A DNA stretch of 64,000 nt from Candidatus Wolfebacteria bacterium GW2011_GWB1_47_1 (lineage in GTDB: Bacteria > Patescibacteriota > Minisyncoccia > UBA6257 > UBA9933), in contig CP011209.1 of assembly GCA_001029635.1 (NCBI GenBank), positions 683,969 through 747,968 of the forward strand, given 5' to 3'. The translations under genes were made by a program, and so were the position numbers. The notes under the pieces are model-generated. The model made no database searches. It was not told the DNA's origin and was given only the letters and a program-made list of their open reading frames with translations. Of the stretch, positions 1,134 to 31,760 are shown piece by piece (position 1 is the first letter of the stretch; each line of letters begins with the position of its first letter).

Positions 1134-1517
1134 TTATTTGTACTGTTGCGGGTTGATCAAGAAGTCTTTTACCTTTTCAACCACTTCTTTGATCGGATGT
1201 TGACTCTTCACAAAGTAATCCTTTGCTCCAAGAGAGATCGCCTGCTTGATGTCCTCGTCACCATCAAGATTTGATAGTACGATCACCGGGAGGCTTTCCA
1301 AATCGCGATCTGCCTTGATATCCTTAAGGACATCGATACCATCGCGCTTCGGGAGCATTAAATCGAGCAGTACGAGATCCGGACGCATCTTTTGAATGAT
1401 CGGGAGTGCTACCTTTCCATCCATTGCCAACTCCACCTCAAATTCCTCGCTTTCAAATTTTTCTTTAAGAACTCTTGCCAGAGCCTCCTCGTCTTCGACG
1501 ATAACAATTTTATGCAT
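1134..1517 (-). CDS. receiver-only response regulator (CheY-like REC domain)
   Basis: MHKIVIVEDEE...LLDLMLPKRDG...K fits the REC domain consensus (acidic pocket DD/E, phospho-acceptor D in LLDLMLP, conserved K). No output domain is present. Start chosen at the ATG at 1517. Confidence 0.8.
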   Translation of the reverse strand: MHKIVIVEDEEALARVLKEKFESEEFEVELAMDGKVALPIIQKMRPDLVLLDLMLPKRDGIDVLKDIKADRDLESLPVIVLSNLDGDEDIKQAISLGAKDYFVKSQHPIKEVVEKVKDFLINPQQYK

Positions 1518-1570
1518 GATATACAGTATATAGTAAATATCTCCCTGGGTAAAGTATACACCCAATCGGC

Positions 1571-3286
1571 TTATTTGTTAATCTCCCCGATGCTTTGCAC
1601 GCAATATTTACCCGATTTTTCGATATTTTCACTTGCTCTTTTCGCCAGATGTCTAATTTCCGAAACCTCGGTCTCATCAATCTTATCATCGCTATACTTT
1701 TCTAGGATCCTATCGATATCCTTCTTGAGCATGGCGAGCATATTAGTCACATCGCGCTGACAAATAACAATCTTTCTTGAACGCTGCTCCCGCTCAAATT
1801 TTACGAATAACCATCCCGCAATAAACGCGCCGATCAGGCCGATGATCAATACCGTAAAAAACCAGAATTGGGTCATCTCAAACTTCCCTAGCACTAGTGC
1901 TGGCCGAGGGCGAACCCTAAATACGTCCGATGTTACCGGGTAGCTCAGCGCTCCTCGGCCATCCCGTGCCGTTACCTCGATCACGTAGTCACCCTTCTTT
2001 AGCGGCCGATCGAATCGTGTAGCCCAGCTGCCGTGCGCATCGGAGTGCGTTTCTATCGCTTGCTCGATTTGCCCCTCCTTTGTTTTTAATTGTACTTGTA
2101 ATGTTATATCGGGCAATGCTGTTCCGATAATATCGAGTCGCCCCTCTCCAACGAATACATCACTCGTGAGTGACGTGATTTTTGGCGCCTCAAGCGGTTT
2201 AATCTCAAGATCCAATATATTTTCCACTACGTTTCCCGCATTGTCTTCCGCTCCAACCTTTACTATATATTTCCCAGGTTTTAGCGGTTCGAACGTATAC
2301 GGACCCTTTTCTACCGTAAGCTGCCCACCTCCATTCATTTGGATAAAGTACCGCTTCAATCCGGAAAGACCGTCAGCCGCAGTATAATCCATAGTCGGTG
2401 TTGGACTATCGGTCGCTTCCCCTTCGCGTATGCGCACTTGGAATGCAGGTGGGGGTGTCGTGTCAATAGCGATACGATAATGCAATGTTGGCCCCCATCC
2501 AATATTATTTCTGAAGCGGACATGTAAGTACGAAACCCCTTCGCTCATTGGCGGGAAAATCTTATTATCAAACAACCCCTCCGAGCCAACCGGTATATGG
2601 GTTGGATCTTTACTTATCACGGTTGAGACATCAGTAATATCATTCGGCAACTGCCATGATGCCGAAAAACGGGTTACATGGCTATACCACGTTTCAGGAT
2701 CTCGATATCCCACTACCTGGATTTCCGGCTTTGCCGGGACGCGTTCCGCCCGTTCGGCGGGACGTGTGATCTGTGTCGGCTTCGGTGTGATCGTCTCAAG
2801 TTCTGATTTTGGAGCACTTGTAATCGAAAGCCCCTTCATTGAGGATAGGACGTTCGTGCCGCTTCCGTCGCTTGCCGTTACGGCTCCGTCAGTAAATACG
2901 ATATCCGTTTTTCCGCTCCCTTTAACTCGGAAGGTGACCTTAACAACCTGCAATGAACGCCCGGAAAATCCACTTGTGGATCCTCCGATAAAGTTCACCT
3001 GCCCGGAGTCATTTGAGAATGTAGGCTCGGTTAGCCAAAAATTAAAGACTGATCCACTCTTGTCGACACCTACAATCTCTAGTACATCCTTTGAAATCTG
3101 TACGACTCCTTGCACAGCATTAATTCCGGAACCTTCACTATCCACTTTCACATCAACTGTAAATTGGTCGCCAATGGCGAACGCATCCTTTTCGGTCGAC
3201 AACTGAAGCGTCGCCGCTGACGCAAGGTTAACCCCCGCAAACAATATCAGTGCAACGCTGACAAATAATGCAAGTATATGTTTCAT
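1571..3286 (-). CDS. membrane-anchored cohesin-domain surface protein
   Basis: Has a signal peptide (MKHILALFVSVALILFAGVNLASA). A ~140-aa domain (FTVDVKVDSEGSGINAVQGVVQISKDVLEIVGVDKSGSVFNFWL...VKVTFRVKGSGKTDIVFTDGAVTASDG) matches the cohesin beta-sandwich pattern. Ig-like regions follow, then a single C-terminal TM helix (FWFFTVLIIGLIGAFIAGWLFV) and a charged cytoplasmic tail. The alternative start at 3328 cannot be excluded. Confidence 0.6.
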   Translation of the reverse strand: MKHILALFVSVALILFAGVNLASAATLQLSTEKDAFAIGDQFTVDVKVDSEGSGINAVQGVVQISKDVLEIVGVDKSGSVFNFWLTEPTFSNDSGQVNFIGGSTSGFSGRSLQVVKVTFRVKGSGKTDIVFTDGAVTASDGSGTNVLSSMKGLSITSAPKSELETITPKPTQITRPAERAERVPAKPEIQVVGYRDPETWYSHVTRFSASWQLPNDITDVSTVISKDPTHIPVGSEGLFDNKIFPPMSEGVSYLHVRFRNNIGWGPTLHYRIAIDTTPPPAFQVRIREGEATDSPTPTMDYTAADGLSGLKRYFIQMNGGGQLTVEKGPYTFEPLKPGKYIVKVGAEDNAGNVVENILDLEIKPLEAPKITSLTSDVFVGEGRLDIIGTALPDITLQVQLKTKEGQIEQAIETHSDAHGSWATRFDRPLKKGDYVIEVTARDGRGALSYPVTSDVFRVRPRPALVLGKFEMTQFWFFTVLIIGLIGAFIAGWLFVKFEREQRSRKIVICQRDVTNMLAMLKKDIDRILEKYSDDKIDETEVSEIRHLAKRASENIEKSGKYCVQSIGEINK

Positions 3287-3349
3287 GACTCGGTTCGTAG
3301 TAAATGATCTTTTTTGTAAGTATAGCATAGAATGAACAGCGACACACTC

Positions 3350-6300
3350 TTAGCCGCCTATCGTCGACCTGATAAAAATGCTGAAGTCTGAGATATCAAC
3401 CTTCCCATCATCGTTCAAGTCGACTTGCCTTCTTTTTTCGGCATCCGTCGATCCAAATCGCGTCAAGAAAATACTCCAATCCCCAATATCGACACTTCCA
3501 TTATTATTCAAGTCGGCGCGCGTCACCAAAGTACGTGTTACCGTGAACACCTTTAGCGGAGACCAATCACTTTCAATGCCATTTTTATCAACCTGCTTTA
3601 CGCGGACTACATGCCCTCCATATGCGAGTTCGCGCGTATTAACCAGGAGTCGATATGTTCCTCCACTCCCTACCGCCACCTCTGTTTCGACCAGTTGTCC
3701 ATCGATTTCCGCCTTAACCACACTGCCCGGCGCCGCCGAACCGGTAAGCCCAACATTATTGCCGATGGTCACCGTACGCGACACCAACCCCGCGGTCGGC
3801 GCGATATACAAATTCTTCTCTTCGGTCGCACGCGTCACCTTGTCCATGGTGTAGGTCTTGATCTGCGCGATCTTCCCATCTTTGTCCAAGATGGCAAGCC
3901 CAAACGATTCCAATCCGCGCAATGCGCCCGAGAAGTCTATTGTGAACGTACCATCGGCGCGCACTTCGATGTCTCGCTCAAGCGGAATGTCCTGCCCACC
4001 AACACGCGCGAAAAGCGATACGCGAGCCCCCGGATACGCCCGCCCGGTAAAGGTAACGGACGGCGCAACATATACACCGCCGCCACCTCCCCCCCCACCT
4101 ACGGATGTCTGGCGAACAAAGAACATCACATCCTGCGTCGAGGTGATCCCTAATGTCGATGTCGAACCGGTCAAGCGCTCCAGCGACAACTGCACCGTTT
4201 CAGCAACGGTATCTGAGACCGTCACAGTCCCAATGCCGTCCACTATATTTACAAGAGCCCGACCATCCAATTTCATCGGTGACGACGTGATCGTTGAAGT
4301 ACTAAATACAAGATACACATCCTCCTGTACGGTCGCATCCAATCCGCCATCAGCATCCTGTGCCTGGATGATCACGACCGTATTTTCGTTCAGTCCAGCG
4401 TCTGCCGGATTAAGAACCACATACCGATCTGCCACTACCGGAGCCGCCGTCACAATCAATGAATCCGATGCATCGGCGATGCCCGCCGCTCCATCAGCAG
4501 CCGTTGCATTATCAGATGCCGTTATATCCCATGTACCGGCTTCTTCATCGTAATACCAGAATGTCGTTGACGCGAATCCGTTCGCAAGCGTCACGAATGA
4601 AATGGAGCTTGTGCCCGTTTCGGTCGCCTGAAATCGCGCCTGCGCACCCGTTGAACTGGTGTACAGGTACACGAGATTGCTCCCCGAGGTCACTACGTTC
4701 CCATACTGATCCTTTCGCGTTACCGTATATGACGTACTCGTTCCTGCCACTATACTGGTCTGATCGGTGAGCGTGAACTGCGTCACTGTTCCTGCGGTCC
4801 AGATGATCGACGCGGTGTCGGTCACGGCTAATCCTGTTCCCTGTGTATCGGACAGCGCCAAGTTGACGGTCTCCGCTACCGTATCAGTCAACGTAATCGT
4901 TCCTTCGCCATTTACGATATCAATCAATACCTGTCCATTGGTCAGTCCGGTGCCGCTTACCGATGTCACACCCGTGACCAGTGTCACATCATTTTGATAG
5001 TTCGTGTCGATATTTCCAAAATCATCCTGCACCTGCACCGTCACCAACGAAGATGCTCCCGCTGCCAAGGTCTGCGGATCCGGTTCCGGCTCAAATACGA
5101 ACCGGGTTCCGGTCGCAACCTGCACCGATATCATATCGGATGCATCGATGATACCCGCCACTCCATCCGGCGCGGTCGCATTATCCGAGGCAGTGATCGT
5201 GTGATCTCCGCTGGTCTCTTCGTAATACCACGCACTCTGCGATGACTGGCCGCCGCCGATCGTCACGCTCGTTACCACATTGCCATTTGTTGCAGCATCA
5301 TAGAATGATGTGCCTACTCCTGCTGGATTCGCATAGAGATATGCCGTCGTATCGCCCGCTGTTACCGGGTTATTGAACTGATCCTTGCGCACCACCGTAT
5401 ATTGCACACGGCTTGCCGGGTTCATACTGGTCCGATCATTGATCGTGAACTTGGCGATCGCCGCCGGATCGATCACGATATCATCGTATCCGATCACTGC
5501 GCCCGTCTGAGTAGTCACCTGATAAGACCCTGCCACTTCGTTGTAATACCAAAACTGTGCCGAAGCATTCCCGGCATCAATCGCCACTGACGTAATTACC
5601 GAGCTTGAGGTTGAGTTGCTGCCATAAAACGTCCCCGGGGACGTCGTTGGCGTTGCCGAAATACCTACGGTTATCGAACTGCTAGTGATCTGATTATTGT
5701 ATTGATCGGTGCGCGTGACCGTGTACGCGACCAGATCTCCGGCCGTCGCATTGACCACGTTGTTCAGATTCAATTTTGCGAATGCGCCCACTCCGAACAT
5801 CACATCCTGGGTTGATGTAGCCGCCAAGCCCGTGCTCTGCGTGTCCGACAGCGACAATGTCACGGTCTCCGCTACTGTATCGCTTACCTGGGTCGTGCCA
5901 ATGCCACCTTCAAGATCTACCAATACCGGATTGGCGACCGCACTCCCCGTTACCAACAATGTCACATCTTCGGTAAAGCTCGGCACTACCTGGCCAAATT
6001 CATCCAATGCCCGCACGGTCACCGTGATCGAGGCATCCACCGTACCATCGGTCGGATCTACGATCTCAAACCGCACCGCAGTCGGTGTCACTAAAATTTC
6101 ATTTGATGCATCATTAATACCTTCATCTCCGTCCGGCGCGGTCGCATTGTCCGAGACCGTTACAGTCGTTGTTGCCGGCGTATTGCTATAGAACCAGAAA
6201 CTGGTCGTTGCATTGCCCGGTGTAAACGCGATCGCAGTGATCTCGTTACCGCCCGCATCTGTGTCATAAAACTTTGCCGTACTGGTCGGGCTTGCATACA

Positions 6301-9300
6301 TATATGCAGGCGTCGTGCTCGCGCTTACGAAGTTACCGTATTGATCCTTGCGTCCCGCAACAAATTCCTTGCGCGTATTCTGCTCCATATCACCACTATG
6401 CGTCAATGAGAACTGCGCGACCGCTCCCGGCGCAAATACCACATCCTGTGTCGAAGATGCAACATTCAGTCCGGTGCCCTGCGAATCTAATAGCGAAAGG
6501 AATACCGTTTCCGCTATGGTATTCGAAATGGTTGTTGTACCCGATCCGTTGATGATATCCACCAACGTACTGGTCGCATTTACCTGTCCACCCGTGCTCG
6601 ACGCGATTAGCGTTACATCGCTCTGATAATCGGTGATCAAGCGCCCCAGATTGTCCTGCGCCTGCACTACGACCGTGATCGGTGCGTCCACCGTACCATC
6701 GGTCGGATTGATAATCATAAATCGGGTTGCCACCGCATTGACCGCAATGGTACTGGTCGCATCGTTGATGCCCGCATTGCCATCGGGAGCCGTTCCATTG
6801 TCCGACGATGTGATCGTATAGGTGCCCGGCTCTTCATCGTAATACCATGCCGCTGTTGTACTCGCCCCGGACCCGATGATCGCTGAGGTTATCACCGTTC
6901 CATTGGTCGCGGCGTTGTAAAACACAGCCGACGATGAGGTCGATGTCGTATAGAAATAAACGGTCGTATCCGGACCACTGGTCACCGGATTACCGTACTG
7001 GTCCTTTCGTGTCGTCACAAATCCCGCACGATCTCCCACATTGAGCGTTGCCGGTCCGGCGAGCGCAAGCTGCGTGATCACACCATGCGCAAAGGTCGCC
7101 GATGTGGTCGCGCTTACATCCAAACCCGTTCCTTGTGTATCGGTCAGTGACAATGTCACGGTCTCCGCTACCGTATCCGATATGGTCGTTGTCCCTGCGC
7201 CGTTCACGATATTAACCAGTATGCTCTCCGGCGTTGCAGAGTCGCTCGCATTGAGCGTTATGTCGCTTTGATAATTAGTCACTACCGTTCCATTTTCGCG
7301 CTGCGCCTGGATCGTGGCCGTGATCGGCCCATCTACAGTGCCGCTGTACGGAGCGCCACTAAATGCAAACTTCACCGCACCGCGGGAAATGATAAATGGA
7401 GATGTCGCCGTTCCTCCGCCCGGCCCTGGATTGGTCACTTCAACGGTCGATGTTCCAAACGTTGCCAATAATGATGCCGGGATGCTCGTTTCGATGACCG
7501 TCGTCGAACTTGCCGAGATCGTCAATAACGTACCATCAAAGGTCACCGTCGTACCGCCGATAAAGTTCGTACCATCGATCGTTAACGATGTCGTAGCACT
7601 TCCTTCTTCCGCAGTATCGGGGACCAGCGAAGTAATGGTGGGCGTCTGATTTTTTCTCAGGAATGTGACACTTGTCGTTGAAAGCCCCCCACCTGGAGCC
7701 GGGTTAAATGCGGTAATGGTCGACGTGCCCGCGGTCGTCAACATTGCCGCTGGAATGGTGGCGGTTGCCGTCGTTGCATTGATAAGCGTGGTCGTTAGGT
7801 CGTCGCCATCAAAGCGGATCACTGTTGACGATACGAACCCTACTCCCGTTACGGTAATGATCGTATCCGGCGATCCGATGAACGCTTCACTTGGGTCGAC
7901 ACTAGTGACACTCGGAGTCGGGTTTCTTCGGATGAACGTTTGCCCGCCCGATGTTCCTCCGCCCGGGGTCGGATTAAACACAGTCACGGTCGATGTTCCT
8001 ACTGTCGTCAGCATTGCAGCTGGAATGGTGGCGGTCAGTTCGGTCGGGCTTACATACGTTGTTGTCAGATTGCTACCATCAAAGCGCGCGACGGATATCG
8101 CATAGAAATTAGTGCCGGTCAATGTGATCAGTGTATCCCCGCTTCCTACGTTTGCTTCAGCCGGGTCGATACTCGTCAATGTTGGCGCGCGGTAGTGGAC
8201 ATTGGTCGTGGTCGCCGCAGAGCCTCCGCCCGGTGTCGGGTTGGTGACCGTCAATGAGAATGCGCCGGTGGTCGAAGCGACCGCGGCGGGTACCGTTGCA
8301 ACTATCTCGGTCGCGCTGTTTGTCGTTGACACCAGTGTTGCTCCTGCAAACACAACCACTGAACTGCTGTAAAAATTGGTGCCGGTGATCGTAACGACCG
8401 TCTCTTCATTTACATAGATCGGATCTGGTGCGGCGGTAGTGATGGTCGGCGTCTTGTGATGCACATTGAATGTCTGCGTATTGGATGTTCCTCCGCCTGG
8501 AGTCGGGCTGAACACGGTTATCTGCACCGTATCGGTCGCGGTCGTCAGATCGCTTGCGGGAATGGTCGCTTCAAGCGTGGTCGACGATATATAGGAAGTG
8601 ACCCGGTCCGATCCATTGAATCGCACCACGGAGTCGGAGACGAAGAACGTTCCATTTACCGTCAATGTAAATTGCGCGTCGTTCACAAACTTCGTATCGG
8701 GACTGATCCCGGTCGTGGTCGGCGTCGGATTCAGTTTTGCAAATGGCCTTCCTTCGGAAGTTCCCCCTCCTGGGGTTGGCGTGAACACGGTCACAGTCGA
8801 TGTGCCTACTGTCGTCAGCATTGCAGCTGGAATGGTGGCGGTCAGTTCGGTCGGGCTTACATACGTTGTTGTCAGATTGCTACCATCAAAGCGCGCGACG
8901 GATATCGCATAGAAATTAGTGCCGGTCAATGTGATCAGTGTATCCCCGCTTCCTACGTTTGCTTCAGCCGGGTCGATACTCGTCAATGTTGGCGCGCGGT
9001 AGTGGACATTGGTCGTGGTCGCCGCAGAGCCTCCGCCCGGTGTCGGGTTGGTGACCGTCAATGAGAATGCGCCGGTGGTCGAAGCGACCGATGCTGGCAA
9101 CGTCGCCGTGATACTTGTTGAACCGGTCGTGGTGGACGACAAAGTCGTTCCCGCAAATTTCACTACGGAAGCGCCATAGAAGTTAGTGCCGGTGATCGTG
9201 AGTATCGTGGTCTCATTTACATACACCGGGTCGGGGGTGTTGGACGTGATGGTCGGCGCGCGGTAGTGGACATTGAGATTTCTTGTATCCTCACCCCCTC

Positions 9301-11563
9301 CCGGGGTCGGGTTAGTAACCTTGATCGTAGATGATCCGGTCGTGGTCACCAGCGATGCCGGAATCGTTGCCGTGATGCTCGTCGCCCCGGTTGTCGTTGA
9401 CGATACGATCGTATCGTTATAGCGAACGACCGTCACTCCATAAAAATTAGTGCCCGTGATCGTTATATTCGCGTCTTCGTTCACATAGATCGGATCCGGG
9501 GCAATATTCGTAATGGTCGGTGCGCGGTAGTGCACATTGGTCGTGGTCGCCGCACTCCCCCCGCCTGGCGTGCTATTGGTGACTGTCAACGAGAATGCGC
9601 CAGTCGAAGAAGCGACGACGGCGGGTAAGGTTGCGGTGATCAGTGTAGTTCCTGTAGTTGTAGACGATAACGTCGTTCCTGCAAATGCAACGACGGAGTT
9701 GCTGTAAAAATTGGTGCCGGTAATGGTGAGTATCGTGGTCTCATTTACATACACCGGGTCTGGGGTGTTGGACGTGATAGTCGGTGCGCGGTAGTGCACA
9801 TTGGTCGTGGTCGCCGCAGAGCCTCCACCCGGGGTCGGATTGGTGACCGTCAACGAAAACGCGCCGGTGGTAGAAGCCACGGCGGCGGGCAAGGTCGCGG
9901 TGATCGATGTCGAGCCGGTCGTAGTGGACGACAAGGTTGTCCCCGCAAATGCGACGACAGAGTTGCTGTAAAAGTTTGTGCCGGTAATGGTGAGGATCGT
10001 GGTCTCATTTACGAACACCGGGTCGGGTGTATTGGACGTAATGGTCGGAGTCCTATATTTGACGACAAACGCGGCACTCGTCGTCGACGTGCCTCCGCCC
10101 GGGGTCGGATTGGTGACCGTCACCGTTGAGGTGCCGGTGCTTGCAAGGTCTGTCGTCGTCACGGTCATATCGAGCGTGGTCGAATTAACAAACGCGGTTG
10201 TGCGCGCACTCCCATTCCAGTTTGCCACGGAACCGGAAACAAACTGTTGTCCGGTCACCGTCACGGTCGTTGTCGCGTCCCCGATGAACGCTTCATTCGG
10301 AGAAAGCGTTGTGACTACTGGCACGCGGTTGCGCACTACAAAACTCTGTCCACTCGAAGTACCTCCTCCGGGGGTCGGGTTAAAAACGGTAATCGTTGAA
10401 GTTCCCGCGGTCGTCAGGTCGGACGACGGGACTGTAATTTCCAATGTTGTGGAATTGATGAACGAGGTCATACGATCTGAATCATTCCAGCGCGCGACCG
10501 AGGACGCAACAAATCCCGAACCAGTCAAGGTTACGGTCGTTGTCCCGCTTTGTACCTCGGTCGATGTCGGACTAATGGCCGTCAACACCGGGGTCGGATT
10601 TTTTACCGTGATCGTCGGATGTGACGCGATGTTCGTCAGCGCGCCGGAATCATCGAAGCGCGATGTTGTTGTTGCAGTATATGTTCCAAAGACCGACGGG
10701 ACTGTCACGCCGCTTGTTCCACCACCATCACCATATGTCATTGTTGCAGTCCCTAGCGCTGCAAGTTGCAAAAAACGTGCGTTGATCGAGCTTGACGGAA
10801 ATGTCAAAGAACCCGGACCTAATACTATATCGTCCGCGTACACCGTTATGTTATCAAGTGCGGCATTGTTCGCGATACGAAATCCATAACTAACAACCGA
10901 TGTGCGCGTGGTCACTCCGAAATTGATCGTTACGTATGTCCATGTATTCGCAGTGATCGCCGGGATATTAATGGATTCGATCGGGCTCGCTAAATTTGCG
11001 CTGTTGTCGTAGCTGAATTGCAATCTATTTGCCGCAATATCCACATCCGTCCTGATCCAAAATCCGACCGTAGTGTACGACGCCCAATTTTGCGACGTGA
11101 TATTTTTGTACCACACATCCCCATTTGATTCATTGCCATTGATACAGTGGATTGATGCCGCTCCTTCGTGTTTCACCCCTGTATCCGCCGTAGGCGCCCC
11201 TGCGGCACACGCGCTTCCAGCACTCCACCCCGTCGCGCTATCCATATCATCTATCACGTCTGCAATCGTGCCGGTCGTGCTAACCGTCGTATATCCGGCC
11301 GTGCCCGCCGTCCCTTGCGGAGCACTGAAGCCTGCCGGCATTGCAATATTAATACCGCCCGAATTCATAGTCTCGGCGGCAGTAAAGGTAAACGTAAACG
11401 TATTTCCGGTCGAACTCACGTCCGTACTCGTCGGCGTGACGGCATTTGTCCCCGAGCCGTCGGCAGCGTACGCAGGCGTAACGCCAAAAATTACGCTGCC
11501 GATCATTAATCCGACTAAAGTGATTACGCTAAATAACGACACACCTTTTTTTTGGGACATCAT
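3350..11563 (-). CDS. giant secreted dockerin-bearing adhesin (2737 aa) with IPT/TIG-like and Big-like repeats
   Basis: N-terminal signal peptide. About ten ~90-aa repeats (P.ITS..PDPV.VNETT.LTITGTNFY...PGGG) resemble the IPT/TIG fold. Later repeats (DYQSDVTL...IVNG.GT..ISDTVAETV.LSL.D.QGTGL) are Big-like. The last ~60 aa carry two DLNNNGSVDIGDWSIF / DLNDDGKVDISDFSIF segments, a duplicated dockerin type-I Ca-binding repeat. Confidence 0.8.
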   Translation of the reverse strand: MMSQKKGVSLFSVITLVGLMIGSVIFGVTPAYAADGSGTNAVTPTSTDVSSTGNTFTFTFTAAETMNSGGINIAMPAGFSAPQGTAGTAGYTTVSTTGTIADVIDDMDSATGWSAGSACAAGAPTADTGVKHEGAASIHCINGNESNGDVWYKNITSQNWASYTTVGFWIRTDVDIAANRLQFSYDNSANLASPIESINIPAITANTWTYVTINFGVTTRTSVVSYGFRIANNAALDNITVYADDIVLGPGSLTFPSSSINARFLQLAALGTATMTYGDGGGTSGVTVPSVFGTYTATTTSRFDDSGALTNIASHPTITVKNPTPVLTAISPTSTEVQSGTTTVTLTGSGFVASSVARWNDSDRMTSFINSTTLEITVPSSDLTTAGTSTITVFNPTPGGGTSSGQSFVVRNRVPVVTTLSPNEAFIGDATTTVTVTGQQFVSGSVANWNGSARTTAFVNSTTLDMTVTTTDLASTGTSTVTVTNPTPGGGTSTTSAAFVVKYRTPTITSNTPDPVFVNETTILTITGTNFYSNSVVAFAGTTLSSTTTGSTSITATLPAAVASTTGAFSLTVTNPTPGGGSAATTTNVHYRAPTITSNTPDPVYVNETTILTITGTNFYSNSVVAFAGTTLSSTTTGTTLITATLPAVVASSTGAFSLTVTNSTPGGGSAATTTNVHYRAPTITNIAPDPIYVNEDANITITGTNFYGVTVVRYNDTIVSSTTTGATSITATIPASLVTTTGSSTIKVTNPTPGGGEDTRNLNVHYRAPTITSNTPDPVYVNETTILTITGTNFYGASVVKFAGTTLSSTTTGSTSITATLPASVASTTGAFSLTVTNPTPGGGSAATTTNVHYRAPTLTSIDPAEANVGSGDTLITLTGTNFYAISVARFDGSNLTTTYVSPTELTATIPAAMLTTVGTSTVTVFTPTPGGGTSEGRPFAKLNPTPTTTGISPDTKFVNDAQFTLTVNGTFFVSDSVVRFNGSDRVTSYISSTTLEATIPASDLTTATDTVQITVFSPTPGGGTSNTQTFNVHHKTPTITTAAPDPIYVNEETVVTITGTNFYSSSVVVFAGATLVSTTNSATEIVATVPAAVASTTGAFSLTVTNPTPGGGSAATTTNVHYRAPTLTSIDPAEANVGSGDTLITLTGTNFYAISVARFDGSNLTTTYVSPTELTATIPAAMLTTVGTSTVTVFNPTPGGGTSGGQTFIRRNPTPSVTSVDPSEAFIGSPDTIITVTGVGFVSSTVIRFDGDDLTTTLINATTATATIPAAMLTTAGTSTITAFNPAPGGGLSTTSVTFLRKNQTPTITSLVPDTAEEGSATTSLTIDGTNFIGGTTVTFDGTLLTISASSTTVIETSIPASLLATFGTSTVEVTNPGPGGGTATSPFIISRGAVKFAFSGAPYSGTVDGPITATIQAQRENGTVVTNYQSDITLNASDSATPESILVNIVNGAGTTTISDTVAETVTLSLTDTQGTGLDVSATTSATFAHGVITQLALAGPATLNVGDRAGFVTTRKDQYGNPVTSGPDTTVYFYTTSTSSSAVFYNAATNGTVITSAIIGSGASTTAAWYYDEEPGTYTITSSDNGTAPDGNAGINDATSTIAVNAVATRFMIINPTDGTVDAPITVVVQAQDNLGRLITDYQSDVTLIASSTGGQVNATSTLVDIINGSGTTTISNTIAETVFLSLLDSQGTGLNVASSTQDVVFAPGAVAQFSLTHSGDMEQNTRKEFVAGRKDQYGNFVSASTTPAYMYASPTSTAKFYDTDAGGNEITAIAFTPGNATTSFWFYSNTPATTTVTVSDNATAPDGDEGINDASNEILVTPTAVRFEIVDPTDGTVDASITVTVRALDEFGQVVPSFTEDVTLLVTGSAVANPVLVDLEGGIGTTQVSDTVAETVTLSLSDTQSTGLAATSTQDVMFGVGAFAKLNLNNVVNATAGDLVAYTVTRTDQYNNQITSSSITVGISATPTTSPGTFYGSNSTSSSVITSVAIDAGNASAQFWYYNEVAGSYQVTTQTGAVIGYDDIVIDPAAIAKFTINDRTSMNPASRVQYTVVRKDQFNNPVTAGDTTAYLYANPAGVGTSFYDAATNGNVVTSVTIGGGQSSQSAWYYEETSGDHTITASDNATAPDGVAGIIDASDMISVQVATGTRFVFEPEPDPQTLAAGASSLVTVQVQDDFGNIDTNYQNDVTLVTGVTSVSGTGLTNGQVLIDIVNGEGTITLTDTVAETVNLALSDTQGTGLAVTDTASIIWTAGTVTQFTLTDQTSIVAGTSTSYTVTRKDQYGNVVTSGSNLVYLYTSSTGAQARFQATETGTSSISFVTLANGFASTTFWYYDEEAGTWDITASDNATAADGAAGIADASDSLIVTAAPVVADRYVVLNPADAGLNENTVVIIQAQDADGGLDATVQEDVYLVFSTSTITSSPMKLDGRALVNIVDGIGTVTVSDTVAETVQLSLERLTGSTSTLGITSTQDVMFFVRQTSVGGGGGGGGVYVAPSVTFTGRAYPGARVSLFARVGGQDIPLERDIEVRADGTFTIDFSGALRGLESFGLAILDKDGKIAQIKTYTMDKVTRATEEKNLYIAPTAGLVSRTVTIGNNVGLTGSAAPGSVVKAEIDGQLVETEVAVGSGGTYRLLVNTRELAYGGHVVRVKQVDKNGIESDWSPLKVFTVTRTLVTRADLNNNGSVDIGDWSIFLTRFGSTDAEKRRQVDLNDDGKVDISDFSIFIRSTIGG
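7998..8283. repeat. intragenic perfect direct repeat, copy 1 (286 bp, period 807 bp)
   Basis: The DNA at 7998-8283 is identical to 8805-9090. The ORF-track shadow proteins 7940..8257 / 8456..9064 and 7665..8105 / 8598..8912 end in identical peptides. Confidence 0.85.
8805..9090. repeat. intragenic perfect direct repeat, copy 2
   Basis: See copy 1. Both copies encode the same IPT-like module (APTLTSIDPAEANVGSGDTLITLTGTNFYAISVARFDGSNLTTTYVSPTELTATIPAAMLTTVGTSTVTVF). Confidence 0.85.
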
Positions 11564-11741
11564 ATGTACTTGTTTACGTTTATGAATACTGTATTAGATA
11601 AATTATATCATCATTCTTATTTTCTGTGTATAGAAGTTGAGCACATTCCCGCCTCTGCAGGAATGACATACAGAAGGACAGATTTCTCGACTTCTCCGTC
11701 GGCTAACGGATCCACTCGGGATAATAGAATGTGCCCTTGAT

Positions 11742-12935
11742 TTATTGTAACCCCCCGCTTGTGTAATTGCTTGACGGATTCCATAGCATATACCCGACAT
11801 AGCCATCCTTGAGCGTGTCCTTCGATGCCTTGATTTGTTTACCTATCATCGCCGCATCGTAATCAGCACCAAGATCGAAGTCTTGCAGCCAAGGACGCAG
11901 CTTTGCGGTTGAGGATGCCGTTGCCTTGTGCATATCAAGGCGCTCTTTCCCCTTCTGCATGGAATCTGCCACCACCTCATAGGGCCATGCAGCCGGGTTT
12001 TTATACCCCATGAATCCATCCGGGTAGTGCGATGGATAAACCATTGGTGATATAAAATCAAAGTTGGCATATGCATCCTCGACAATCTGACCAATTCCGA
12101 TATCCTCTGTTTTAATCATCGTGAAGCCGAATAGGTCCGCCGAAATCACAACGCCACGCATCTCCTCACGCAGATATTGCATAAACTTTTTAATTATCTC
12201 CGTATGTGCTGTATTCTCGATGGTCTTTGGATACAGTATCGATGTGATTGAACCGTCGGACGGGAATCGAATGTAGTCGTAATTTAATTCATCGAATCCG
12301 TAACCCAACACGTCTTTTGATAGTGCTACCACATATTCATACACTTCACTTGATGACGGGTCCACCCATGCAAGGTTCTTTCGATCGCGCCAGATTGTTT
12401 TCTTTGACATCGCCCCGCCAGCAGCACGTACTTTTCTCGCATCATGCACCGCTATTTCGGGACGCGCTTCGGCAAATGCCGTATCTTGAAACACCGCAAC
12501 GCGACCGATTACATAAATTCCTTCATCATGGAATCGTTGTACCAACCCTCCAAGATCACGAATAAATTTTTGTCGCAGTTTATATTGTTTAACCGTTTCC
12601 AATTGCGAATCGTATGCCACCATACCGAATGAATCTTTGACATCGATTACCACCGCGTTAAGCCCATTCTTCTTCATCGCGAGCACCGTTTGTATCTTAT
12701 CCTCACGACCCGCCGATGGCGCGGTGAGATAGACTGCCTTCATCACATCGGGCGTCTTCATTCTCTCTATCATCGGCGTAGTCACGTCCTCTCCTTTCTT
12801 TATTTGTTCCTGTTGCGATTCCATACCGGTTGCATTACTAGAACCATTGACCGAGTCCTTGTTTGTATACGATAACCCAAATGCTGCCGCGCTAAGCACT
12901 ACACCCCCGATTCCAATGAAGAAAAGTTTTTTCAT
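11742..12935 (-). CDS. putative glycoside-hydrolase-like TIM-barrel protein (DUF4015-like), secreted
   Basis: N-terminal TM/signal (MKKLFFIGIGGVVLSAAAFG). Motifs NAVVIDVKD, YDYIRFP and WLQDFD are typical of the GHL/DUF4015 family. Start chosen at the internal Met. Confidence 0.5.
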   Translation of the reverse strand: MKKLFFIGIGGVVLSAAAFGLSYTNKDSVNGSSNATGMESQQEQIKKGEDVTTPMIERMKTPDVMKAVYLTAPSAGREDKIQTVLAMKKNGLNAVVIDVKDSFGMVAYDSQLETVKQYKLRQKFIRDLGGLVQRFHDEGIYVIGRVAVFQDTAFAEARPEIAVHDARKVRAAGGAMSKKTIWRDRKNLAWVDPSSSEVYEYVVALSKDVLGYGFDELNYDYIRFPSDGSITSILYPKTIENTAHTEIIKKFMQYLREEMRGVVISADLFGFTMIKTEDIGIGQIVEDAYANFDFISPMVYPSHYPDGFMGYKNPAAWPYEVVADSMQKGKERLDMHKATASSTAKLRPWLQDFDLGADYDAAMIGKQIKASKDTLKDGYVGYMLWNPSSNYTSGGLQ

Positions 12936-13029
12936 AAATATGCTTACAGTATAGCATGGAGCGTCTTCCATAGAATATAGGCACTTGGGTATGGTATTAT
13001 TACCATAACAACCGTTAGTCATTTCTATT

Positions 13030-25407: not shown

Positions 25408-26214
25408 TTATGTATCGACTAGCAATTCCTTGAGTGTTACCAGACGATATCCTTTGCTTTTTGCATATTGCACCATCTCCTCAAGCTGTCCAACGTCTGC
25501 CTTTCGCGTGTGATACAAATATATCATACCTGGCGAGAGTGTCGTCCGAAAATACCGTTGCACCTCTTCCCCACTACTCTGTTTGCCTCCAATAAATAGC
25601 GAATCGCCCGACCACATGGCAATATCAATCGGGACTCCATTATAGATCCCTAGTCGTTCAACCGCTCTCCGATATGAGGGCATGCATCCGCTTTTTTCGT
25701 AGCCAAATACGCCACTTCCACATGGCGGTCGAACGTACGAAAATGTGACCGCTTCTCCCAACACACTGCGTAGCGTTTCGATATTTTTTCGATAGGCATC
25801 ATACTGCCCTTCCTCGCTCATCTTGGTCATCTGCGTGTGCGATTGCGTGTGTAATTCGATCTCGTGCCCAAAGGCATAGATCTCCTTCCACATCTTAGGA
25901 TACTGACTTACCGCGTTGCCGGTCGGAAAGAAGGTGAATTTCACGTCATTTCTTATTGCCACTTCATGGGCTTTTTCCAGTAATGCTCCACTATAGCAAT
26001 CGTCGATCGTGATCGCTATTACCGGCTGCGCAGTCTTCTTACTCCAGACTACTTGGACCTTGATCGGTCCTACGGGCACCGTCTTTTCGATGACCGCCCC
26101 TTTAGACTCTTCAAGAGTTACCTGTGGCGCATGGGGTATACCGTTATCGATTTGTGCACCACTTGCCAGCCTAGCCATCCCAATCACCATAATACCAATA
26201 GCTATCCGTACCAT
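25408..26214 (-). CDS. polysaccharide deacetylase (NodB homology domain), secreted
   Basis: IAITIDDCY (Asp-Asp metal motif), HEIELHTQSH and PPCGSG. Start chosen at MVRIAIGIMVIGMA, which has a GGGAGG Shine-Dalgarno (the ORF track begins 45 nt earlier). Confidence 0.8.
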   Translation of the reverse strand: MVRIAIGIMVIGMARLASGAQIDNGIPHAPQVTLEESKGAVIEKTVPVGPIKVQVVWSKKTAQPVIAITIDDCYSGALLEKAHEVAIRNDVKFTFFPTGNAVSQYPKMWKEIYAFGHEIELHTQSHTQMTKMSEEGQYDAYRKNIETLRSVLGEAVTFSYVRPPCGSGVFGYEKSGCMPSYRRAVERLGIYNGVPIDIAMWSGDSLFIGGKQSSGEEVQRYFRTTLSPGMIYLYHTRKADVGQLEEMVQYAKSKGYRLVTLKELLVDT

Positions 26215-26300
26215 CTCTTCCTCCCTGGTTGTAAAAAATAATCCCTCGTGGAGATCCATCTTGGATTATTTAAAGCTATTATCATATCCCTGTCAAATCA

Positions 26301-27901: not shown

Positions 27902-29290
27902 TCATATCGCTTCACCTTCTCCTTTTTTCAGCGGAAGCGCGATTATGAATTTTGACCCAACACCTTCCATGCTTTCAACGGAAATGACCCCACCCATCGC
28001 CTCACATAACGCCTTCGTAATCCACAGCCCCAACCCCGTTCCCGCAATACTTTCCGTATGCTCGGTTTTTACGCGATAAAACTTTTGAAACAGGCTTCGT
28101 TGTGCCTCCGCGGACATGCCCAACCCGCTATCTTCAACACTAATAATAAATCGCTTATGCATCTTGTCGATCCTTGTGCCGATGCGGATTGTTCCCTTCT
28201 CGGTATATTTTATCGCATTGCCGACCAGGTTAATCATAATCTGGCGCAACCGCTTAGTATCAATAGAGAGTATTGCCGGCTCCAACTGTGTCTTATCTTC
28301 ATATGCCACTACAAGGCCCTTCTGCTCAGCGCTTAACTGTATTGTATCGACAACTTCCTTAATCACTTCATAGGGTGACTCATCCCGCACATCCAGAACC
28401 AATCTATTTTGCTCAATACGCGAGACATCGAGAATATCGGAAATAAGCGACATAAGATTGTCAGCATACGACACGATCGCCTTCAATCTATCCATTTTCT
28501 GTTCTTCCGTCAGATGAACAGCCGATTGCTGCAATATCTCGGCATATCCCTTCATAACCACCACAGGTGTCTTCAATTCATGCGCGGCCATCGAGATGAA
28601 CTCGTCTTTCATCTTGTCGACTTCCCGCAACTTACTCAATGACACGGAGAACTTCACGAAGCGCGTATGGTTAATAACCAGAATAATCACCAATAGAACA
28701 GCAAAAACCATAATCGTATATGAGTTTCTAATGGCCATATTCCTCGCCGCATCCGTCTCCTGTAGCGATATCGTCAGCCGCACCAATCCCACTTTTTCAT
28801 TCTGGTTATCATAAAATGGCTTTACCACATTCCATTGCCGAACATCATTGTCAGTGCTCAAAAACCCTGTGGCCTCATTGTTTTGCCACGCCAAAAGGCC
28901 CGCCGTTTCAAGCGCTTGGACCGTTTGATTGGAAAGATTCTTATGTTCCCGCACAATGGAAACAGCCGAAACAAGCTCCTTGTCTTTTTGCGTCAAAACC
29001 TCGATCGCCGTTATTTCAGGATTGCTTTCTATAACCTCGCGTATTTTGTCCTTAAGATCCGGCCGTTCGACGTATTCGAACATAAACGTATCGAGTACCT
29101 TTTCGGTCAAAAATGCCTTACCTCGCACGATCGTGTTTATGTTTGCATCGAATTGATCAATTGTAAATTGCACGTTTGCATACAGCGCTAGCGGTATTAA
29201 TACAATCAAAATCAAAGACGACAATATACCAGGATATTTCCGTATGAATTCAACCCCTTTTTTCGCGTAATCAATAACCATATCAAACAA
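27902..29290 (-). CDS. sensor histidine kinase (2 TM, HisKA + HATPase_c)
   Basis: H-box FISMAAHELKTP, N-box LVGNAIKYT, G1/G2 DSGLGM / GTGLGLWI. Two TM helices flank a ~150-aa extracytoplasmic domain. Confidence 0.85.
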   Translation of the reverse strand: MFDMVIDYAKKGVEFIRKYPGILSSLILIVLIPLALYANVQFTIDQFDANINTIVRGKAFLTEKVLDTFMFEYVERPDLKDKIREVIESNPEITAIEVLTQKDKELVSAVSIVREHKNLSNQTVQALETAGLLAWQNNEATGFLSTDNDVRQWNVVKPFYDNQNEKVGLVRLTISLQETDAARNMAIRNSYTIMVFAVLLVIILVINHTRFVKFSVSLSKLREVDKMKDEFISMAAHELKTPVVVMKGYAEILQQSAVHLTEEQKMDRLKAIVSYADNLMSLISDILDVSRIEQNRLVLDVRDESPYEVIKEVVDTIQLSAEQKGLVVAYEDKTQLEPAILSIDTKRLRQIMINLVGNAIKYTEKGTIRIGTRIDKMHKRFIISVEDSGLGMSAEAQRSLFQKFYRVKTEHTESIAGTGLGLWITKALCEAMGGVISVESMEGVGSKFIIALPLKKGEGEAI

Positions 29291-31364
29291 TGTCTCTATC
29301 AGGATTTTTGAATGATCGCACTACCATAAAGACGCCGACCAAAAGCCCCAACCCGATAACCAGCGCAACAATGATGCTAAAATTCCGCTTTGATTCATCA
29401 ACTGTTCCAATATTTTCAGATCCTGCGGCCTGCGCCAACCCTTCAATATTTGCAACTGTAATAGCCTGCGCCGTTTTTACAAATCCGACCACCTGACTCT
29501 TTGCCACAATCTTGCCCGAGCTATCGTTGATCGTTACGTACGCCTGATGCTGCCCATCGTCGAGCGGCTTATCGAGTGCGTATGACCAGCTTCCATTCTT
29601 ATCCGCCTTAACCGTTACGATTGTCGGAATGTCGCTATATATGTAGAGCGTCACCAACGCATATGGCAGTGTTTTACCCGCAAGCTTGATCTTCTCCCGT
29701 ATTACCTCTTTTTTCTCCTTCACGGTTTGTACCACCCCTGTCTCCGTTGTCTTTATTACTTCGACTTCCACTACCTCCGTTGTCGTCGCCAATAAGACCG
29801 TTTCTATTTTTAGTAATTCCGGCTTTACTGTTTCTCCAAGCAATTTCGCATTTTCATATTCGATCTTTATTGCCCTATTTGCATCTAGCGGATTTGTCCC
29901 CTGCCTTACTTCAATACCATCGTTGACGCCATCCCCATCCGTATCTTTTTTGAATGGATCCGTATGCAACGCTTCGATCTCTTGATAATCAGTAATACCA
30001 TCCCCATCCGCATCTTTCACAATTCGATCCAATTCGTTTTGTGAAACCACTCCCGTATCTTGAGATGCCTGCTTTAATTCACTTGATACCTGCTCTAGCC
30101 GTTGCACTACGACACTCGTGACCACCACCGGCTTCGGCGGTTCAGGAGTTTGATCCTCCTGAGGCGTAATAGCGGACCGGAATATATTGCGCACATTTTG
30201 GAAAAATCCGGCGTTTTTTGTTTCGACGGGAATCGGCGGGGCGATGGTTGGCGTATTGATAACCGGCTTTGATACATCTACCGCCTCCGGTGTCCGCTCT
30301 GACTCAATCGTCATCGCCGGTCTTTGCTGTGGCACGGTAGGATCAACAGTCGGTATGATCGCCTGAATAGGTGCCGGTTCGATGGCCGGCTCCTGAGTTT
30401 GTTGCGGCGCCACGGAGCTAGTCGTTGTTGCAATACTACCCGTTGTCTGTGCATTATATACCATCACACCAACCGTACCTCCCTTATACCTCTGCCCTAA
30501 TTGATTGGTTATCCGCGCCTCGATTACATAATTTCCATTTGCGACGGTTCGCGTATCCCAACGGTGTAGCCATTCGTCTCCTATCTGCTCCGTTTCTTTG
30601 ATCATAATCGGACTCGTCGTATCTTTCGCATTAAAAATCGCATACTGTACATCTGTCGCAAACACAACAGCCCCTCGTATCTGAAGATACCCCGCTACTT
30701 TTGCATATTGGGCGGGGCTTATAAATAGAAATTTATTCTCCATAGGATCGTTTGCGATCGCAAATGTCACTAGTTCAGTAGTTCGCAATGACCCATCTGG
30801 ATATTTCGCCAATCCACGCAATTGATACCCCTCCCCGTTAGGAAACGATGCGGTGCTAATCGAAAAATAACAATTTTTTCCGGGTATCGCTCCGGCAAGA
30901 AGCGAGGGCTGCGTCTGCGAGCAGTCCGGATAAATCGGATGTATGCTCTTATTTGGCATGATAAATTCCGCTACCACCGCCAGCGGCTCTCCAAACACCC
31001 GAACCGCAGCACTGCGGACACCCTTAATCACTTCATTATTCTGCACGCCTACGATAAGCGGCTTCTCCGATGCCGGTAGCGTTGTCGTAGCCACTTCCAC
31101 AGTCCCATCATCACCTAAAAATACACTGGTCGTCGCAGTACTAGATTTTTTGGTCGAAGTACTTGTTACTACACCAACCGTCATAGTCGAGGTCGTTGAT
31201 TGTGCAGACACGTCCGTCGTAGTTGAAGTCGTCGATTGCGCAAACGCATCCGTCGTAGTTGTCAGCAAGCTCGCAAGTACCGAGCTTGCCGGGTTTGATC
31301 CGACCAATGCGACCGCAATCCCGACTGTCATAATGATTCCGAAACCCGCCAAGTATTTCTTCAT
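29283..31364 (-). CDS. secreted/anchored surface protein with thrombospondin type-3-like Ca-binding repeats
   Basis: Signal peptide. Ser/Thr-rich linker. DADGDGITDYQEIE and DTDGDGVNDGIEV are TSP3-like Asp-rich repeats. C-terminal TM helix (FSIIVALVIGLGLLVGVFMVV). Overlaps the kinase gene by 8 bp. Confidence 0.6.
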   Translation of the reverse strand: MKKYLAGFGIIMTVGIAVALVGSNPASSVLASLLTTTTDAFAQSTTSTTTDVSAQSTTSTMTVGVVTSTSTKKSSTATTSVFLGDDGTVEVATTTLPASEKPLIVGVQNNEVIKGVRSAAVRVFGEPLAVVAEFIMPNKSIHPIYPDCSQTQPSLLAGAIPGKNCYFSISTASFPNGEGYQLRGLAKYPDGSLRTTELVTFAIANDPMENKFLFISPAQYAKVAGYLQIRGAVVFATDVQYAIFNAKDTTSPIMIKETEQIGDEWLHRWDTRTVANGNYVIEARITNQLGQRYKGGTVGVMVYNAQTTGSIATTTSSVAPQQTQEPAIEPAPIQAIIPTVDPTVPQQRPAMTIESERTPEAVDVSKPVINTPTIAPPIPVETKNAGFFQNVRNIFRSAITPQEDQTPEPPKPVVVTSVVVQRLEQVSSELKQASQDTGVVSQNELDRIVKDADGDGITDYQEIEALHTDPFKKDTDGDGVNDGIEVRQGTNPLDANRAIKIEYENAKLLGETVKPELLKIETVLLATTTEVVEVEVIKTTETGVVQTVKEKKEVIREKIKLAGKTLPYALVTLYIYSDIPTIVTVKADKNGSWSYALDKPLDDGQHQAYVTINDSSGKIVAKSQVVGFVKTAQAITVANIEGLAQAAGSENIGTVDESKRNFSIIVALVIGLGLLVGVFMVVRSFKNPDRDIV

Positions 31365-31376
31365 ATATCGTATATA

Positions 31377-31760
31377 TTATTTATTTTTCACGATCGCACT
31401 GACGCGCGCAACAAGCTCATCTAATTCCATTGCCTTGTTCCAATAGTCAATTGCCCCAACTTCCTTTGCCGCCTTTACGTCTTCCGGGCGATCCTCGATG
31501 CTTGTCAAAAACGCAACCGGAATATCCTTGCATTCCGGGTCGCTCTTTAATTTATCAAGCGTTGCGGGCCCGTCCAATTCAGGCATCATCACGTCGAGCA
31601 AAATAAAATCCGGCTTTACCGACCGTGCAAGGTCATATCCTTCGTATCCATTTTTTGCATACGACACCAAAAAACCGGCCATGACTAATTTTTCGCCAAA
31701 AATCTCCCGCAATGCAGGGTCGTCGTCTACCACTAGTATCCGCTTCTTTATTTCTTCCAT
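31377..31760 (-). CDS. receiver-only response regulator (REC domain)
   Basis: ILVVDDD...LLDVMMPELDG...K. No output domain. Confidence 0.8.
   Translation of the reverse strand: MEEIKKRILVVDDDPALREIFGEKLVMAGFLVSYAKNGYEGYDLARSVKPDFILLDVMMPELDGPATLDKLKSDPECKDIPVAFLTSIEDRPEDVKAAKEVGAIDYWNKAMELDELVARVSAIVKNK

Follow-up and report, generated by a model that had tools for sequence, protein, structure and literature searches.

A cohesin-dockerin gene pair of Parcubacteria-type Patescibacteria as a probable two-part surface-display module

Comparison with described cohesin-dockerin systems

Cohesin and dockerin domains are the modules with which cellulosomes are assembled. In Ruminococcus flavefaciens, CttA-XDoc binds the surface-anchored single cohesin ScaE, and the genes of both proteins lie in one sca cluster (PMC5301203). 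A comparable gene pair is present in a 64,000-nucleotide (nt) stretch of Candidatus Wolfebacteria bacterium GW2011_GWB1_47_1 (GenBank CP011209.1, positions 683,969 to 747,968 of the forward strand; the whole stretch is called the window below), where a secreted protein of 2737 amino acids (aa) that ends in a dockerin (the cargo) is encoded next to a 571-aa membrane protein with a cohesin domain (the anchor) and a receiver-only response regulator. The two genes recur side by side in many lineages of Parcubacteria-type Patescibacteria (the candidate phyla radiation, CPR). They probably encode a widespread two-part surface-display module, in which the cargo would be an anchored adhesin, a label suggested by its domain types.

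The CttA-ScaE system, which works in this way, provides a precedent for the docking idea. In both cases a non-catalytic protein with a carbohydrate-binding module (CBM; CBM-like in the present cargo) and a C-terminal module followed by a dockerin would dock onto a surface protein with a single cohesin, although the correspondence is one of functional analogy rather than of sequence-family membership. ScaE is linked to the wall by a sortase acting on an LPXTG signal and also holds a whole cellulosome via ScaB, whereas the present anchor ends in a transmembrane (TM) helix and a cytoplasmic tail and is accompanied by neither enzymes nor a scaffoldin. The CttA-ScaE modules are of type III, with X-module insertions, whereas the dockerin described here is short, symmetric and type-I-like, without insertions. 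Also unlike CttA-ScaE, the pair is conserved throughout much of a radiation of phylum rank and has a receiver gene linked to it. The same logic is shared by OlpA and OlpC of Clostridium thermocellum, anchoring proteins with a single type I cohesin that are held to a wall polymer by SLH domains. Their cargo, however, consists of cellulosomal enzymes, and unlike the present anchor they possess no TM helix, tail or dedicated neighbouring partner.

Cohesin and dockerin modules outside cellulosomes are also known (Peer et al. 2009, cited in PMC9012536 and PMC6030884). As they are presented in those citing passages, the examples from Archaeoglobus fulgidus, glycoside hydrolases of Clostridium perfringens and anaerobic methanotrophic (ANME) archaea are scattered domains for which no fixed partner gene is mentioned, whereas the genes described here form a defined cassette of two or, often, three genes, one of them for a dedicated membrane anchor. 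The TMEM132 proteins, adhesion molecules of holozoans, contain a cohesin domain, three immunoglobulin (Ig)-like (BIG) domains, a TM helix and a tail linked to intracellular machinery (PMC6030884), and thus share the order of domain types with the anchor. This resemblance is one of domain types only; TMEM132 is eukaryotic, has an additional conserved N-terminal region and has no known dockerin partner. Within the CPR, SEML1_0315 of Southlakia epibionticum (Saccharibacteria) is an envelope protein with Ig-like domains and a dockerin that is essential by transposon sequencing (Tn-seq), and its gene is closely preceded, on the same strand, by genes for a PAS histidine kinase and a response regulator of 130 aa (PMC10633639). 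The listing shows no cohesin gene beside it, and it can be likened to the cassette by description only (PMC10633639). This was the nearest mention found, and no description of the cassette in CPR was encountered in a literature search whose coverage excluded most subscription journals. The layout of the anchor family appears to be new, as do its pairing with a dedicated partner encoded next to it, its wide occurrence among Parcubacteria-type lineages and its linkage to a receiver. The cohesin identity itself is not, given that some anchor orthologues are already named 'cohesin domain-containing protein' by NCBI or UniRef. If the module operates as proposed, it would extend cohesin-dockerin pairing from cellulosomes to general envelope architecture, with a C-terminal TM helix and tail as a new mode of anchoring.

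Conservation of the gene pair and variation of the cargo

All three open reading frames (ORFs) were confirmed on the minus strand, head to tail in the order cargo, anchor and receiver (Table 1). The gap from cargo stop to anchor start is 63 nt and that from anchor stop to receiver start is 53 nt, and the ORF calls bear out the three genes, coordinates, shared strand and short gaps given in an earlier reading of the window from its letters alone (the sequence-only reading). The promoter-like site upstream of the cargo gene is the top sigma-70-type match between positions 900 and 13100 (10/12, by consensus scoring only). A consensus-type scan found no terminator-like site in the interval between cargo and anchor, and tRNA and Rfam scans of the window gave no matches.

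The genomic context of the pair was surveyed in the surroundings of four orthologues and in 80 species-representative genomes, using our own ORF calling and hidden Markov models (HMMs); lineage names are those of the records, in which labels such as 'uncultured Saccharibacteria' and 'Gammaproteobacteria' on automatically binned metagenome-assembled genomes are probably unreliable. In 81 of the 84 loci with a dockerin match, the dockerin-ended ORF stops between -100 and +150 nt from the start of the cohesin gene on the same strand; two exceptions to this adjacency have the receiver gene between the two. A survey of related genomes for the same gene order, proposed in the sequence-only reading, thus recovered the order of cargo and anchor almost throughout. 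Lineages with the pair include Wolfe-, Colwell-, Pace-, Staskawicz-, Yonath-, Harrison- and Azambacteria as well as Nomura-, Uhr-, Magasanik-, Buchanan-, Lloyd-, Adler- and Jorgensenbacteria. The window and every surveyed locus contain a single dockerin and a single cohesin. Recurrence across so many related lineages indicates that the pair is probably their standard mount for variable surface proteins.

The proteins mounted in this way differ greatly. The shortest cargo proteins have about 420 aa and the longest more than 3300 aa, and heads are unrelated between lineages, whereas the base of two Ig-like domains plus dockerin is common to 81-82 of the 86 upstream cargo proteins. The middle repeats of the window's cargo occur in half of these proteins (43/86), its head type in 14/86 and its TIG repeats in 5/86. 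As judged from sequence comparison, the cargo is a mosaic with a constant base and variable heads and repeats. Patescibacteria are a huge, mostly uncultured group of ultra-small bacteria, many of them attached to hosts. With its constant base and swappable heads, the cargo is an obvious candidate for recognition of host or substrate. An HMM of the dockerin tail, or simply inspection of the gene upstream of the anchor, should find the main exposed surface protein in any Parcubacteria-type genome.

A pair that is conserved and single-copy per locus is also what would be expected of a core envelope component, and great variability and a Thr-rich composition, both seen in the cargo proteins, are common among surface-layer (S-layer) proteins. 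The dockerin proteins could accordingly be subunits of an S-layer or other surface coat, with the anchor as lattice stalk and the same cohesin-dockerin link between them; an analogue would be the Sulfolobus S-layer, with SlaB as stalk and SlaA as canopy. Luef and co-workers reportedly saw S-layers on CPR cells by cryo-electron microscopy, in work of 2015. Such an envelope-building role nevertheless appears unlikely. The range of cargo lengths and the unrelated heads are hard to fit to one lattice-forming fold, the window's cargo is a fibre-like linear string of about 25 Ig/TIG modules with a CBM-like tip, and no S-layer family model was matched in Pfam and NCBIfam scans.

Table 1. Positions of the cassette, its domains and further features of the window
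Feature	Coordinates	Strand	Basis or remark
DUF4015 putative glycoside hydrolase	11742-13022	-	2.7e-88; directly upstream of cargo gene; without dockerin
Promoter-like site, TACACA-17-TATAAT with TG	11602-11630	-	about 40 nt upstream of cargo ATG; consensus match only
Cargo gene, 2737 aa, secreted, Thr-rich	3350-11563	-	ORF and translation; Pfam TIG, Dockerin_1; NCBIfam CoaZ_rpt_PGGG
Cargo signal peptide, residues 1-33 (...TPAYA, then ADGSG)	11465-11563	-	sequence; helix 10-25 in predicted model
Cargo N-terminal head, residues 34-320	10604-11464	-	beta-jelly-roll resembling carbohydrate-binding modules, in Ig-like frame
Twelve TIG/PGGG ('choice-of-anchor Z') repeats, residues 321-1385	7409-10603	-	Pfam TIG, NF058597
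Cargo middle region, residues 1386-2488	4100-7408	-	two alternating Ig-like module types, five copies each
Gly8 hinge, residues 2489-2496	4076-4099	-	separates variable part from constant base
Constant base, two Ig-like (Big_6/Big_13-type) domains, residues 2497-2675	3539-4075	-	Pfam Big_6, 1.3e-07
C-terminal dockerin, residues 2676-2737	3353-3538	-	two Ca-loop and helix segments, DWSIF and DFSIF; PF00404
Anchor gene, 571 aa	1571-3286	-	orthologues 42-80% identity; start at 3286 agrees with orthologues and NCBI record
Anchor signal peptide, residues 1-24		-	sequence and helix in model
Cohesin domain, residues 25-158	2813-3214	-	nine-stranded sandwich in model; membrane-distal end of protein
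Pro-rich linker (159-188, disordered in model) and three Ig-like stalk domains (189-471)	1874-2812	-	Pfam Big_13, Y_Y_Y
Single TM helix, residues 474-495, then KFEREQRSRK (positive-inside)	1802-1867	-	sequence; continuous helix 473-530 in model
Cytoplasmic helical-hairpin tail, residues 496-571	1574-1801	-	helices 473-530, 538-570 in model
Second promoter-like site	1553-1581	-	before receiver gene; consensus match only
Receiver-only response regulator, 127 aa	1134-1517	-	PF00072 4.4e-25, residues 4-108; no output domain
Receiver-only regulator, second cluster	31377-31760	-	second cluster
Secreted Thr-rich protein, 693 aa	29283-31364	-	bacterial TSP3 Ca-binding repeats, Big_13, own C-terminal TM anchor
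Histidine kinase	27902-29290	-	second cluster

Domains of cargo and anchor and the proposed joint between them

The cargo of the window consists of 18.6% Thr, with two Cys, and its mature start 'AADGSGTN' is kept in homologues. Pfam and NCBIfam scans matched no catalytic domain in it, in line with the sequence-only reading, which had also suspected the N-terminal carbohydrate-binding beta-sandwich that the predicted fold presents as a CBM-like head. The head is followed by the TIG repeats, recognized in 12 stretches both by Pfam TIG (1.9e-65) and by NCBIfam NF058597 (CoaZ_rpt_PGGG; 750 bits against a cutoff of 30). The name of the latter implies a repeat paired with various C-terminal anchors; here that anchor is the dockerin. 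The middle region matched no Pfam model and contains about ten Ig-like modules (the motifs RKDQYGN and AETV each occur five times). With the two Big_6-like domains of the base, the total comes to about 24 repeats, so that the repeat types in the sequence-only reading hold and its count of about 20 was somewhat low. By analogy, the two-domain base may act as the X-module does in type II/III dockerins and lend mechanical support to the adjoining dockerin.

Assemblies differ in the length of this gene. In another assembly of the same organism (L005; GCA_003453235.1, DMLX01000006.1), the cargo is 2468 aa long, with 0 mismatches elsewhere but without the three PGGG/TIG repeats at window positions 8282-9088 (cargo residues 826-1094). 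Certain of the TIG repeats are 92-95% identical to one another, and the deletion reflects either real variation in repeat number or collapse of such repeats during assembly. In the older assembly L004 (GCA_001000945.1, LCNR01000010.1), the giant gene is split into three ORFs (870 + 1596 + 204 aa) and the DUF4015 gene likewise into two, probably through frameshift errors; both genes are intact in the window and in a 633-kb JGI contig (L003).

The dockerin at the cargo C-terminus is well supported. Each of its two repeats, DLNNNGSVDIGDWSIF (residues 2684-2699) and DLNDDGKVDISDFSIF (2715-2730), contains a canonical Ca loop of 12 residues that leads into a helix. The EF-hand-like pattern D-x-N/D-x-D/N-G-x-x-D-x-x-D is found in DLNNNGSVDIGD, followed by WSIFLTRF, and in DLNDDGKVDISD, followed by FSIFIRS, at a spacing of 31 residues. 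PF00404 (Dockerin_1) matches residues 2683-2732 narrowly above its cutoff of 22.9 bits when the whole protein is searched (23.6 bits) and at 27.9 bits when the C-terminal fragment is searched, and together with the two tandem segments of about 22 residues this places the domain in the type I dockerin family and upholds the duplicated Ca-binding repeat read from the sequence earlier. Our own HMM of the dockerin family scores the cargo C-terminus at 2.1e-27, its sole match in the window. In an alignment of about 80 orthologous tails, the Ca loops are fixed at -53/-54 and -22/-23 from the C-terminus, the signature D[LF]NxDGx[VI]DIxDWSIFLxRW...DLNxDGKVDIxDFSIFIR is near-invariant, and invariant D, N, G, S and F positions fall in the loops and the DWSIF/DFSIF helices. 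The near-symmetry of the two halves would allow a dual binding mode. A homologue search with the C-terminal 281 aa gave 12 matches, 7/12 with a precomputed PF00404 assignment, a number unsuited to gauging family size since the word prefilter apparently skips large proteins.

The anchor belongs to a large family. It is 100% identical to a hypothetical protein (P0001) of Candidatus Wolfebacteria bacterium GW2011_GWE1_48_7 and can be aligned over its entire length with hundreds of orthologues. When 1.84 billion representative proteins were searched with the family profile, 2889 matched at E<=1e-30, the best 150 of which are mostly single-stretch, full-length matches to proteins of 550-610 aa. In an AlphaFold model built on a 32-sequence alignment (predicted local distance difference test score, pLDDT, 84.9; about 90 in the stalk domains), residues 25-158 adopt a predicted nine-stranded beta-jelly-roll that is superimposable on solved cohesins. 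Cohesin positions conserved at >=90% are N56, A57, Q59, F83, W84, P88, F99, G101, G102, A135, T137, A138 and D140-N145. The most conserved residues fall on strands 3, 5, 6 and 8 and on the 8-9 loop, which correspond to the canonical dockerin-binding face of solved complexes; this distribution is consistent with binding through the 8-3-6-5 sheet. The protein carries neither an SLH domain nor a sortase (LPXTG) anchor and ends instead in the TM helix and a 76-aa tail; sequence and model agree with the signal peptide, single C-terminal TM helix and cytoplasmic tail originally proposed. The tail is present at full length in all orthologues and contains a conserved QRD motif, with R511 and D512 nearly invariant.

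Two further features of the anchor family were observed. The first stalk domain (residues 189-275; window 2462-2722) is the best-conserved part of the anchor, above the cohesin as a whole, with many invariant aromatic residues (W200, W211, F239, Y253, H255 and W264). No family model recognizes this domain, which may itself serve in binding, perhaps to the wall or the Ig-like base of the cargo. Two distant relatives, P0270 (886 aa) and P0296 (866 aa), contain two units in one predicted protein. The first unit, of about 330 aa, has a signal peptide, a cohesin-like domain, a small domain and a TM helix, and the second is complete and anchor-like, with its own signal-peptide-like segment. These proteins may be adjacent genes merged in gene calling, or tandem paralogous anchors.

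A natural fusion further links cargo and anchor. The 1014-aa protein P0299 (locus L088, 1771-4815) matches the anchor profile only at positions 168-571, which correspond to linker, stalk, TM helix and tail. Over its first 320 residues it shares 57% identity (E 5e-82) with the head of the dockerin-bearing cargo that is encoded upstream of the anchor at locus L012; next come a PGGG repeat and a PA14 domain, then the anchor part. Neither cohesin nor dockerin is present in P0299, in which, to judge from its sequence, a covalent link replaces the dockerin-cohesin joint proposed elsewhere between head and anchor. Covalent joining is as expected if cargo and anchor form one functional unit. In the comparison of loci, the scaffoldin-less docking of a giant protein on a membrane anchor, proposed in the sequence-only reading, finds strong support in the conserved pair, the 1:1 ratio per locus, the conserved face of the cohesin, this fusion and the receiver linkage. 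P0299 is flanked on both sides by receiver genes, encoding a 128-aa receiver and a 263-aa receiver-domain protein, and the receiver linkage therefore follows the stalk-TM-tail part rather than the cohesin-dockerin joint.

Several observations weigh against a docked, anchored adhesin. PF00963 (Cohesin) does not match the N-terminal domain of the window's anchor even at E<=10, and the family profile finds only weak matches to R. flavefaciens cohesins among PDB sequences (E 0.04-0.06). A mutual-information (MI) analysis of 75 sequence pairs, with 134 columns on the cohesin side and 58 on the dockerin side, yielded no usable covariation signal, with top scores <=0.34 scattered over non-interface strands. 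The likeness of the cargo head to CBM folds does not in itself demonstrate sugar binding, sequence conservation of the cytoplasmic tail is modest overall (0.42), and P0299 is known from a single 7.9-kb groundwater metagenome contig. The counts of one dockerin and one cohesin apply to the window and the surveyed loci, and further partners may be encoded at other sites of the genome. With respect to the cohesin, 21 of 32 full-length orthologues match PF00963 at E<=0.01 (best 1.2e-9), and these matches and the predicted fold identify residues 25-158 as a cohesin despite the failure of the window's copy. The sequence-only reading had held that a lack of significant HMM matches would speak against it; in Pfam, the dockerin lies above threshold and the cohesin fails, formally an outcome of that kind, which we regard as overridden by the family evidence.

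The uninformative covariation and the divergence of the window's cohesin from Pfam would equally suit neighbours that do not bind each other. The EF-hand pair would then be a Ca-dependent folding or stabilizing element, or a binder of host molecules, and the cohesin would bind elsewhere, to a glycan or another surface protein, with the gene order reflecting co-expression only; cohesin-fold domains without a known dockerin partner do exist, as in TMEM132 (PMC6030884). This explanation, however, seems quite improbable, given that deeply separated lineages retain the tight 1:1 adjacency (81/84 loci) in spite of a cargo that otherwise varies, that conserved positions cluster on the canonical binding face and the dockerin helices, and that P0299 exchanges both modules for a covalent link.

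Under the surface-display reading, the anchor would be exported by the Sec pathway and its signal peptide removed, with the C-terminal helix staying in the membrane. The linker and three Ig-like domains would hold the cohesin outward by about 10-15 nm, on a rough estimate, which should be enough to cross the wall. The cargo would be secreted in turn, and its Ca-loaded dockerin base would plug non-covalently into the cohesin. The variable part would form a long Thr-rich fibre, the CBM-like tip of which would most likely bind a glycan-bearing surface, such as that of a host cell. A minimal cellulosome-like system, with the anchor displaying dockerin-bearing enzymes such as DUF4015 and the giant protein targeting the substrate, can hardly be maintained: the assembly modules and the CBM-like head are present, as are the putative glycosyl hydrolase directly upstream on the same strand and a polysaccharide deacetylase at 25408-26259, but the single dockerin of the window, like that of each locus, belongs to the non-catalytic cargo, DUF4015 lacks one and adjoins the cargo gene in close Wolfebacteria loci only, and one cohesin per protein and locus, no scaffoldin and no SLH or sortase anchor were found, so that this reading is largely refuted.

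The receiver and neighbouring surface proteins

The third gene encodes a receiver-only response regulator, as the sequence-only reading had it: PF00072 was matched without any other domain, and the acidic pair/pocket, phospho-acceptor D52, S81 and Lys are all canonical, as read from the sequence. In 41/80 non-redundant loci the anchor gene is directly followed by a receiver-only ORF, compared with 6.4% receiver ORFs among neighbouring genes (binomial P ~1e-27, which is not a true probability because the loci are phylogenetically related). Extending the distance to <=3 kb downstream on the same strand, receiver-domain ORFs are present in 53/80 loci; in Yonath- and Nomura-type loci, the receiver is located just upstream of the cargo gene instead. 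PAS histidine kinases are frequent neighbours. That a stand-alone receiver accompanies the module so steadily suggests a possible link between the surface structure and signalling, a case weakened by the roughly one-third of loci without a receiver within 3 kb downstream and by the receiver-rich character of the surveyed neighbourhoods in general (9.5% of ORFs).

Lacking an output domain, the receiver must act through protein contacts and cannot by itself regulate transcription. It may connect the module with a two-component phosphorelay; a candidate partner for such contacts is the always-retained hairpin of the anchor's conserved cytoplasmic tail. More speculatively, and in our estimation doubtfully, the cassette could serve not only as an anchor but also as a surface-contact sensor, coupling attachment to a phosphorelay in bacteria that depend on contact with a host. 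Load or ligand on the dockerin-held fibre would then be passed via the single-pass anchor to the cytoplasmic helical hairpin, which would recruit or release the neighbouring receiver-only regulator.

One protein joins cargo and receiver sequences directly. In P0145 (362 aa), found on three contigs of up to 62 kb, a CBM-like head of the 'ADGSGT' type is continued without interruption by a receiver domain. Either a deletion or a chimera across the interval from cargo to receiver could have produced it.

A second cluster of receiver and surface-protein genes, without cohesin or dockerin, occupies window positions 27902-31760 on the minus strand (Table 1). It repeats the theme of a C-terminally anchored Ig-domain surface protein beside a stand-alone receiver. 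Its 693-aa protein was considered as a counterpart of the 687-aa gene product encoded after the anchor in Colwellbacteria, but shows no similarity to it.

The window also encodes several surface proteins using other modes of anchoring. Predicted envelope proteins with PG_binding_1 peptidoglycan-binding domains are encoded at 39496-41028 and 56779-58371 on the minus strand, one of which also contains fn3/purple-acid-phosphatase-N-type domains and the other a bacterial surface Ig-like domain, and a CAP-domain protein is encoded at 55669-56661.

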